This document shows positions 21,001 through 24,000 of a stretch of DNA of 64,000 nt, piece by piece. Within the stretch, counting starts at the first letter, position 1. Each line of letters begins with the position of its first letter. The stretch is from Halarcobacter sp. (GTDB taxonomy: Bacteria > Campylobacterota > Campylobacteria > Campylobacterales > Arcobacteraceae): NCBI GenBank assembly GCA_963676565.1, contig OY781089.1, positions 320,001 to 384,000 on the forward strand, given 5' to 3'. The position numbers were made by a program.

Positions 21001-24000
21001 TACAGCAACAATTAAAACAAGTGCTGCTGCTGGTGTTACTTTAGAAGGAGAATCTCCGAACGCTTCAATTACAGTAAACTCAACATCAGGAAATGCTACT
21101 CTTACTGTTGCAGCAGCAGCATCTGCTTCTTCAACATCAGAAATGACTGTTAATGTTTCTGCAAATGATGTTTCTAAAATAGGTCTTAGTAACTCTACTA
21201 CTACAAGTTCAATAGTATTATCAACTGATGATGTTGAATTAGCTAAATTCTTAGATAAAGAAGCTGATAAATCAACTTCTGATGGATTAACAAAAATCTC
21301 AAGTGGTGTATATGAATTTAAATCTACTGCTGATGCAACTGAATCAACTATCACATTTGAAAATAATGCATTAGTTGATATTAGTAGTTTAAAAGTTAGT
21401 AATCTATCTGCATTAACTACTGGTGGAGATATATTCAAAGTTTATACTGACGAAGCTGTTACAGTTGAAAAACTTGGTGGTGGTAATGATATTACAGTAA
21501 ATACTGGTTCTGCTATGGATGTAAAAATCAATGGTGACACATCAGAAGGTATTGCTTATACAGCAGGAACTTATGCAATGCTTACAGAAGGTACAATTGC
21601 AGTTAGAGACAATTCTACTTCAGCAACACTTGATGTTGTAGCTATTAACTCTGTTGAAGCAACTACTACTTCAGAAGTAGCTATTAACTCATTTACTGCT
21701 ACATCTGATGCAAGTGTAAAATCTATTTCATTAAGAAATACTGGTGCTGAAGCAAGTGTTATTATATCTACTACAGATGGTACTACAGCTCAAGCTTTAA
21801 GAGATGCTGGTCTTAATGAAAATGCAGATGGTACATTTACTTGGTCTACATCAGGCGTTGATGATACAGCAACTTTAGATTTTGGAACAGATGGAATTGA
21901 TATTGGAAATATTAGTTTCTCAGATGTTGATAAAAACACTACTTCTAATGATGTTATCTTTATTGAAACATCAGGTACAGTTACAATCTCTAATGATAAA
22001 GCAGAAGGTACAGACTCTGATTATGGTCATATAAGTGTATCTTTAACTACTTCAGAAACAGCTGCTGCTTTTGAAACTGCTGGTGTTGGATTTGGAGAAG
22101 TTAGTTCAGGTATGGCATTTAAAAACCTTGAAGGTCTATCAGTTTTAGGAGAAGGTGATTTAACCTCTGATACTGCTAATTTATATATGAGTGTTGTTGA
22201 TGATGCATTAACTCAACTTAACTCTGTTAGATCTGACTTTGGTGCTACGCAAAACCAATTAGACTCTGCTATTAGAAATATGATGACAGTGCAAACTAAT
22301 ATTAAAGCAGCGGAATCTGTAATTAGAGATGTTGACTATGCAGAAGAATCAGCGAACTTTAATAAACAAAATATTATTTCTCAAGCTGGATCTTATGCTA
22401 TGTCTCAAGCTAATCAAGTACAACAGAACGTTCTTAGATTACTTCAATAAAATTAATCTATCTAAAAGCCTAGTTAATTCTAGGCTTTTTTATTTGTCTA
22501 CTCATATTTAATCTAATTTTAAGAATTGGTATGTGATAATTTCATTATAAGTATATAGGGATCAATTGATTCCAAAGAGACTTTTTCTCTATGCTTGGTA
22601 ACACAAGAATGTTTTAGGCTGTGAAACTATTCACTATGTGTCATAATATTGAAAGGATTTATTATGAGAATTAATACAAATGTGTCTTCTTTAAGCGCAC
22701 AAGAAGCAAACAAAAACACGAATAACAACATTGCTAAATCTTTAGAGAAACTATCTACAGGTTTAAAAATCAACAAAGCTGCAGATGATGCATCTGGTTT
22801 AGCTATTGCTGATAAACTTAGAACTCAAGGTAACTCTATTGGTCAAGGTATCTCAAATGCTAACTCAGCAGTTGCATTAATCCAAATTGCTGATAAAGCT
22901 ATGGCTGAGCAATCTAACATTTTAGATACAATCAAAACTAAACTTATTCAAGCATCTACTTCTACAACTTCTGAAGATGGTAGAGAAGCTATTAGAAAAG
23001 ATATCCAAAAACTTTTAGAGCAATTTGACAATATCTCTGGTCAAACTAACTATAATGGTTTAAATCTTTTAAATGAGAAAGATAAAGAATTTGTTTTCCA
23101 AGTTGGAGAAGACTCATCTTTTGATATTGGTTTAAAAACTGAATTCGCTGTTAATACATCTGGTCTTGGAAGTGCAGGAAATGAAGGAACAACTACTTCT
23201 ACTATCAAAACTACTGGTGGAGCAGCTGGAAATGTTACTTTAGAAGGTGAAGTATCTAATGCTTCAATTACTGTTAGTTCAACAGCTGGTGATGTATCTA
23301 TAAGTGCTGCATCAGCAGCATCTGCTTCTTCAACATCAGAAATGTCAGTTAATGTTTCTGCAAATGATGTTTCTAAAATAGGTCTTAGTAATACTACTAC
23401 TACAAGTTCAATAGTATTATCAACTGATGATGTTGAATTAGCTAAATTCTTAGATAAAGAAGCTGATAAATCAACTTCTGATGGATTAACAAAAATCTCA
23501 AGTGGTGTATATGAATTTAAATCTACTGCTGATGCAACTGAATCAACTATCACATTTGAAAATAATGCATTAGTTGATATTAGTAGTTTAAAAGTTAGTA
23601 ATCTATCTTCATTAACTACTGGTGGAGATATCTTCAACGTTTATACTAACGAAGCTGTTACAGTTGAAAAACTTGGTGGAGGAGAAGACATCTCTATTAA
23701 TAATAGTGGTGGTGATGTTATGGATGTAAAAATCAATGGTGACACATCAGAAGGTATTGCTTATACAGCAGGAACTTATGCAATGCTTACAGAAGGTACA
23801 ATTGCAGTTAGAGACAATTCTACTTCAGCAACACTTGATGTTGTAGCTATTAACTCTGTTGAAGCAACTACTACTTCAGAAGTAGCTATTAACTCATTTA
23901 CTGCTGCATCTGATGCAAATGTAAAATCTATTTCATTAAGAAATACTGGTGCTGAAGCAAGTGTTATTATATCTACTACAGATGGTACTACAGCTCAAGC

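Follow-up and report, generated by a model that had tools for sequence, protein, structure and literature searches.

Known control systems

Flagellin and the fliD-fliS class are late genes of the sigma-28 (FliA) type in Campylobacterales, and an extended -10 element can function without a -35 box. For the family Arcobacteraceae, the flagellar regulators are stated to be unknown and loss of FlgM is reported (PMC9321776). The closest described counterparts of the element analysed here are direct-repeat sites of OmpR-family regulators. CosR (Cj0355c of C. jejuni; PDB 8UVX and 8UUZ) is reported across the Campylobacterales (PMC10936212), and its motif is given as TTAA-n7-TTAA (bioRxiv 10.64898/2026.08.04.742711). 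Its footprint on ahpC spans -37 to -17 (PMC3139631). HP1043/HsrA of H. pylori (ttTAAG-5-tTTAAg) binds two TTTAAG hexamers 5 bp apart at -42 to -26, replacing the -35 box, often with an extended TG, and activates transcription (PMC8345958, PMC5253667).

The late flagellar element of the Arcobacteraceae resembles CosR sites in its TTAA-n7-TTAA core and its position over the -35 region. In the cmeABC site, known from footprinting, comparable half-sites follow in the same order, but they are separated by a 6-nt spacer unlike that of the element. Differences from CosR sites are eight extra near-invariant bases, a weak -10 element and late flagellar targets, and the Arcobacter regulator itself keeps Asp51 and a cognate kinase. 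With HP1043 sites the element shares an 11-bp direct repeat in place of the -35 box, the extended TG and, as predicted here, activation; flgG2-flgG is among the listed ChIP targets of HP1043. The match of register to HP1043 sites holds only to within 2 nt, because the start site of the element's promoter is a predicted one. The G of the first HP1043 half-site is not required in the element (T, A or G stands at -35), whereas CTA is.

The promoter element and its sequence logic

The window is the whole 64,000-nucleotide stretch of a Halarcobacter sp. genome that was analysed (contig positions 320,001 to 384,000). This genome is labelled G000, and other G numbers denote its Arcobacteraceae relatives. 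The genome-wide survey's note had reported a 16-bp box, fixed 8 nt upstream of ATAAT, before flagellin, flgK-fliD-fliS and flgG. Its sequence stands: box, gap and ATAAT are exact at window positions 22512-22540 (contig 342512-342540, forward strand) before a flagellin. The 16-mer recurs exactly before flgK (219493-219521, reverse strand) and with one mismatch before flgG (3210038-3210066, forward strand). Taken with the -10 element, these are the three best matches in the genome. Genome-wide, the combined pattern yielded 2, 3, 4 and 6 matches at 0, 1, 2 and 3 mismatches, and its reversed control 0, 0, 0 and 5. Without the -10 element, the 16-mer showed no enrichment over its reversed control in G000 at two mismatches (33 vs 38) or three (446 vs 442). 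Pfam identifies the products encoded in these neighbourhoods as FlgK, FliD, FliS, FlgH and FlgG.

The extent of the box had to be revised: the element begins 4 nt further 5' with a TTAA and ends 2 nt later (TG, 22528), as set out in table 1. Outside G000, the logos of 37 flgK and 55 flagellin sites read TTAA-nCTAnnn-TTAA-GAAwTG at -39 to -19, followed by TG-n-nATAAT. Registers are counted relative to the -10 element, with a predicted transcription start, and the flagellin logo is biased upward since its sites were pre-filtered by match. At flgK the first TTAA mostly overlaps the flgH stop codon, and it is retained where that codon has moved (G024, G050, G080). T at -12 is found in 7/37 flgK and 14/55 flagellin sites, the extended TG in 28/37 and 41/55, respectively. 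Within the -10 element conservation falls on A-11 and T-7, as it does in sigma-70 promoters. A symmetric palindrome was rejected, as the left-arm bases needed for pairing are the variable ones.

Table 1. Positions of promoter, gene and RNA features in the window (position 1 is contig position 320,001).
Feature	Positions	Strand	Remarks
First flagellin of the pair, without element and leader	20471..22450	+	the leader has a single match in G000
Terminator-like hairpin (10-bp inverted repeat, then Ts) after first flagellin	22464..22491	+	predicted function
Full element, TTAA-nCTAnnn-TTAA-GAAwTG (-39 to -19)	22508..22528	+	direct repeat of CosR/HsrA type with flagella-specific flanks
Upstream TTAA half-site	22508..22511	+	each position 92-100% conserved (37 flgK, 55 flagellin sites)
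Downstream TTAA half-site	22519..22522	+	11 bp after the first; site logos
Weak extended sigma-70 -10 element, TG-n-GATAAT	22532..22540	+	no T at -12; predicted start site
Three-hairpin flagellin 5' leader RNA	22554..22615	+	conserved and covarying; no Rfam match
Second flagellin, predicted to be element-driven	22664..24655	+	start is the ATG behind a ribosome-binding site
Degenerate element copy (downstream half and weak -10) before the 70-aa gene	56228..56260	+	fourth-best genome match
70-aa basic helical-hairpin protein, no known family	56291..56503	+	regulon member; co-occurs with leader RNA

The hairpin between the two flagellins implies that the second requires a promoter of its own. No reads on the stretch were found in raw-read RNA runs. 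Two further exact 21-bp copies occur in G000: one (2404933-2404953) precedes what may be a gene for a 37-aa membrane peptide, close to a small winged-helix gene, and the other (3057352-3057372) lies in reverse orientation just ahead of a 290-aa gene.

Distribution in the Arcobacteraceae

The box is real and specific to the Arcobacteraceae. At two or fewer mismatches it has 145 matches in 64/81 family genomes, against 7 for the control, and it is absent from all six family genomes without flgK. The exact 21-bp pattern was found in 10/10 Arcobacteraceae and in 0/191 other Campylobacterales. The survey had the same box marking the same gene classes throughout the family, which is borne out for flagellin and flgK and fails for flgG. 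The 69 matches outside G000 at one mismatch or fewer, placed by hand, stand before flgK (28), flagellin (29), the 70-aa gene (5), a 227-aa family (2), flgO (1) and other genes or none (4); flgG accounts for 0/69.

Searching from the genes gave a similar picture. All 30 of the best flgK loci carry the box at three or fewer mismatches. A further 20 flgK loci from distant genera include 13 with the extended pattern at two or fewer mismatches, four with a degenerate version and three divergent FlgK-like genes before which no element was found. Flagellin genes have a box within 260 nt in 31/58 cases, most of the others being first or inner genes of arrays. A second, divergent FlgK-like gene set is present in G037, G051, G070, G072, G023 and G012 and suggests a second flagellar or related system.

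Sigma factors

The gene set of the element overlaps that of sigma-28 promoters in Campylobacterales (major flagellin, fliD-fliS and the 227-aa family), but the -10 element is of sigma-70 type and the sigma factor itself is missing. As the survey had stated, the lineage has no sigma-28 (FliA scored above the TIGR02479 cut-off in 0/81 family genomes, with matches of RpoD length only), and in G000 three sigma-70 models detect RpoD alone, while a single protein with an RpoN box is encoded within the nif region. The same three models found no ECF sigma factor in G000; other family members encode such factors. Neither CGATwt before the late flagellar genes of G000 nor a sigma-54 -24/-12 GG..GC element before 17 flagellar and regulon starts was detected. 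Recognition of the element by ECF, sigma-28 or sigma-54 factors is accordingly not supported. A 97-aa stand-alone protein resembling sigma region 4 is encoded after surE (G000:447013-447306) and occurs in 73/81 genomes.

It is very improbable that no activator is involved and that the element is simply a very good sigma-70 promoter shape, or an old sigma-28 descendant now served by RpoD or by a divergent sigma factor that escaped detection. The ability of extended -10 elements to dispense with a -35 box would fit this proposal, as would a loose resemblance of CTAA..GATAA to sigma-28 boxes. Against it, the canonical TTGACA is present in tRNA promoters of G000, the pattern of -10 conservation is sigma-70-like, no second sigma-70-family protein was found, and two promoters drawn from a generic profile would agree at 13 flanking positions with a chance of about 8e-7.

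A CosR/HsrA-type site as the preferred reading

The element is interpreted here, with about even confidence, as a site of CosR type through which a weak sigma-70 promoter is activated; binding, activation and transcription start are all predicted from sequence. The proposed mechanism would run as follows. (i) CosR, which keeps the phosphorylated aspartate, is paired with its kinase CosS. (ii) A dimer of this OmpR-family CosR/HsrA regulator would bind TTAA-n7-TTAA at -39 to -25, in the element that would replace the -35 box of a weak sigma-70 promoter, and recruit RpoD-RNA polymerase. (iii) The late flagellar promoters, which lack T at -12, should depend on this activation; no other promoters have so strong and so constrained a form of the site. 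(iv) Genes dependent on sigma-28 (or sigma-54) in other Campylobacterales would have been rewired onto sigma-70 after FliA loss.

The regulator is present. CosR is encoded at G000:1179413-1180093, Asp51 is kept, and a histidine kinase gene comes next. Residues 146-219, within a near-identical DNA-binding domain, show two differences from C. jejuni CosR (8UVX). The recognition helix is identical in all nine full-length orthologues checked, and a kinase adjoins cosR in 8/9 relatives checked; this adjacency has also been described in A. butzleri (PMC3938529). Of the OmpR-type regulators in the small box-bearing genomes G042 and G005 (seven in each), CosR alone is found in both and in G014, G001 and G019 as well, the comparison with G019 covering six of its 18 OmpR-type regulators. 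Several TTAA-n7-TTAA repeats surround the cosR promoter (G000:1180093-1180394), one of them downstream of the -10 element, as expected for autoregulation. A CosR-like paralogue with a degenerate receiver lies beside cytochrome bd-type genes (G000:2875400-2876050), and G001 also has a second CosR-like gene.

The site is present as well. As a CosR/HsrA site requires, the element holds two TTAA motifs 7 nt apart, and it overlaps the -35 region of a sigma-70 promoter that lacks TTGACA (register -39 to -25 from the -10 element, with a predicted start). Intergenic TTAA-n7-TTAA in G000 peaks at -39 (35 sites) and -38 (34 sites), where 545 shuffles averaged 5 sites and never exceeded 13 and 15, respectively; repeats with spacers of 5, 6, 8 or 9 give no such peak in G000. 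Together with the figure of about 8e-7, this register peak makes generic AT periodicity far too improbable as the sole cause. In five outgroup genomes, 41/113 sites fall at this one of nine spacings, four of the five genomes being individually enriched and one not. The register is shared with housekeeping promoters in G000 and the outgroups. The -39 class of G000 includes rpmJ-rpsM, rpmH, rpsO, rpsB, the porin MOMP, tRNA-Ser and tRNA-Phe, and the listed HP1043 targets include rpmJ, rpmH and both tRNAs (PMC8345958, PMC5253667). A presumed cytochrome c553 was dropped from the class, as Pfam did not confirm it. At -38, 34 TTAA-n7-TTAA promoters make up another class, shifted by one base towards the -10 element and free of C/G enrichment; this class may belong to other OmpR-type regulators.

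The flagellar sites stand out within the -39 class. Flagellin and flgK agree at 13/13 non-TTAA positions, whereas no other of the 630 pairs agrees at more than 10. Other members in G000 match at most five of the eight invariant flank bases. With the box sites removed, the class is still enriched for C-34 (11/33) and G-24 (9/33). Matrix scores in G000 are 34.7 for both flagellin and flgK, 26.1 for the site at 2404953, 22.0 for the 227-aa gene and 16.2 for flgG, the last a value that shuffled upstream regions also reach (up to 17.6).

What CosR leaves unexplained, and candidate co-regulators

Several observations limit the CosR reading. The 21-bp pattern is missing from the 191 other Campylobacterales, a group across which CosR is reported (PMC10936212), so the element is not simply a CosR optimum. 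CosR is also found in non-flagellated genomes, and a housekeeping regulator offers no obvious assembly checkpoint. Others of the 56 OmpR-type proteins in G000 may read TTAA-n7-TTAA. Unphosphorylated CosR of C. fetus bound C. jejuni promoters weakly (PMC3938529). A G directly behind the first TTAA matters for binding by HP1043 but is no fixed feature of the element, with G in 35% of flagellin sites and as a minor base at flgK; it lies outside the CosR motif as worded in bioRxiv 10.64898/2026.08.04.742711. In G038, a single draft genome, all three late promoters lack TG at -20/-19, a joint loss that an invariant CosR would not explain. The eight flagella-specific flank bases could be either affinity determinants for CosR or the site of a second protein.

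Near-invariant flanks make a second reader plausible, and it is possible, though doubtful, that CosR reads the TTAA core while the flanks (CTA, GAAwTG) are recognized by a separate protein dedicated to flagella, which would add a late-gene step. The candidate is a basic, all-helical 147-aa protein encoded directly after flgG (G000:3210900-3211343); a product of this middle operon would then turn on the late promoters. It is rich in Lys and Arg (33% together), with invariant Tyr/Asn/Arg repeats. These 15-residue repeats match helical regions in longer proteins, 28/55 of them with GIY-YIG or HNH nuclease domains, although the matches are weak and of low complexity. It is modelled as a single long helix, which corresponds to no known DNA-binding fold, and no solved structure matching its profile was found. 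The protein occurs in 74/81 family genomes, the same 74 that have flgG, and in 0/191 outgroups, but this distribution is expected for any neighbour of flgG and would be the same for a regulator or a structural gene. G038 combines a truncated 147-aa protein with the loss of TG from all three late promoters, subject to the same caveat of a single draft. G019 (assembly 93% complete) has the element while flgG and the 147-aa gene are both missing.

A dedicated flagellar activator or repressor reading the whole 21 bp, with the likeness to CosR sites reflecting general AT periodicity, is unlikely. The full pattern is family-specific with near-invariant flanks, and related sigma-70 promoters generally show a T-rich periodicity at -17, -27 and -38 (PMC3847290); yet the core has the exact spacing and register of CosR sites, and the dedicated binders examined failed on their distribution. 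The orphan regulator (G000:2151434-2152144) is absent from all seven g8 genomes, the 97-aa sigma-4-like protein occurs in non-flagellated genomes and was not found in box-bearing g5/g6, and the 70-aa protein was not found in g2, g4 and g13. Two other candidates were considered: the 308-aa product of the gene heading the fliQ operon, which resembles 'highly acidic' proteins and was set aside, and FlhF, which has been discussed as a DNA binder (PMC7105676). The orphan regulator is encoded after polA and has a strongly conserved DNA-binding end; it occurs in 67/81 genomes and was not found in g8, g9 and g20.

The regulon

The regulon suggested by promoter sequence comprises flagellin, flgK-fliD-fliS, the 70-aa gene and the 227-aa gene, with flgO in some genomes. 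The survey's list of flagellin, flgK and flgG holds for the first two; it had overlooked the 70-aa and 227-aa genes, flgO and the leader RNA, and its placing of flgG as a full member is not sustained. Among 30 flgG loci, CTA and the second TTAA are conserved, so that only the upstream part is shared; the -10 element is consensus TATAAT, and G at -24 is found in 0/30. In 15 of these loci the upstream half is a -10-like hexamer on the opposite strand, and a divergent cheY is present at 28/30. By its promoter sequence flgG is a partial, half-site member. Look-alike CTA motifs before the fliQ operon (308-aa gene) and the flgI operon are explained by overlapping divergent -10 elements.

The 227-aa gene (G000:2540110-2540793) carries the full element in the five relatives examined. 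Homologues in 3/5 outgroup genomes have promoters of the sigma-28 type, with the exact CGATwt consensus (PMC3847290) in two and a one-base variant in the third. This promoter type points to co-expression with the flagellum, so the database label 'hydrogenase-4 component G' is probably wrong. Orthologues of the 70-aa gene located inside flagellin arrays carry perfect copies of the element. Two genomes have the full element ahead of flgO as well, and three have it ahead of large adhesin-like genes; in three small genomes it stands ahead of cadherin/Ig-domain surface proteins, tying adhesins to the flagellar regulon. The element does not accompany two additional short flagellin-like genes or two small genes resembling export substrates, all of which lie away from the flagellar clusters (L012:7942-8772; L013:6605-7417, 11753-12281).

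A flagellin leader RNA and a candidate partner

All 40 distinct matches to the leader pattern in the fetched loci stand before a flagellin. In an alignment of 27 sequences, 96% of cells are paired, against 34-49% in slid controls, and 10/14 pairs change on both sides. These compensatory changes argue that the leader is a structured cis-regulatory RNA. It is repeated before inner flagellins without a promoter of their own and so probably acts as RNA. A fourth, variable hairpin follows the three before the ribosome-binding site. No Rfam match over the leader was found at E<=5 in G000 or at E<=1 in four other loci.

The leader is found in 58/81 genomes and the 70-aa protein in 63/81. Both occur in 57 genomes and neither in 17, with the protein alone in six (drafts) and the leader alone in one, the relatives behind these counts not being independent. 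Three flagellated genera (g2, g4 and g13) lack leader and protein alike. The 70-aa gene lies between pseB and recA or inside flagellin arrays, and a fold search with the protein model returned nothing at E<=0.001. Binding of the leader by the 70-aa protein is put forward as a hypothesis. A structured flagellin 5' leader with a candidate small, basic protein partner recalls CsrA-FliW control. It differs in that CsrA did not exceed the cut-off in 5/5 genomes, the presence of FliW does not follow that of the leader, and its conserved linkers are not GGA loops.

Implications for the family

In the literature on Arcobacter flagellin promoters, leaders, FliA/FlgM and CosR, as far as the available text of these sources extends (including PMC9321776, PMC9324650, PMC13035637 and PMC11334517), no description of the element or leader was found; Ho et al. 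2008 on Arcobacter flagellins may discuss these promoters. The survey's claim of a first cis-element for late flagellar control is therefore to be qualified: a conserved, family-specific element without a prior description among these sources has a core that is the published TTAA-n7-TTAA. The CosR/HsrA-type core is known; the flank-extended variant that marks a rewired late-flagellar regulon is new.

A bolder and rather unlikely scheme would have the FliA/FlgM/CsrA layer wholly replaced in the Arcobacteraceae. (i) Phosphorylated CosR and the helical 147-aa protein of the flgG operon, a DNA-binding protein with homing-endonuclease-like repeats, would turn on the late promoters. (ii) The 70-aa protein, itself under this promoter, would bind the three-hairpin leader on each flagellin mRNA and set its output.

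Standard assays can be applied to each of the parts described: the defined 21-bp element and its regulon, the likely regulator, the candidate co-regulator, and the new leader RNA along with its putative protein partner. The two uncharacterized proteins (147 aa and 70 aa) and the leader RNA are concrete leads. Flagellar gene control in the Arcobacteraceae, so far unexplained, thereby becomes directly testable. If the CosR reading is true, a sigma-28 regulon can move onto the housekeeping sigma factor by way of a recruited essential master regulator.
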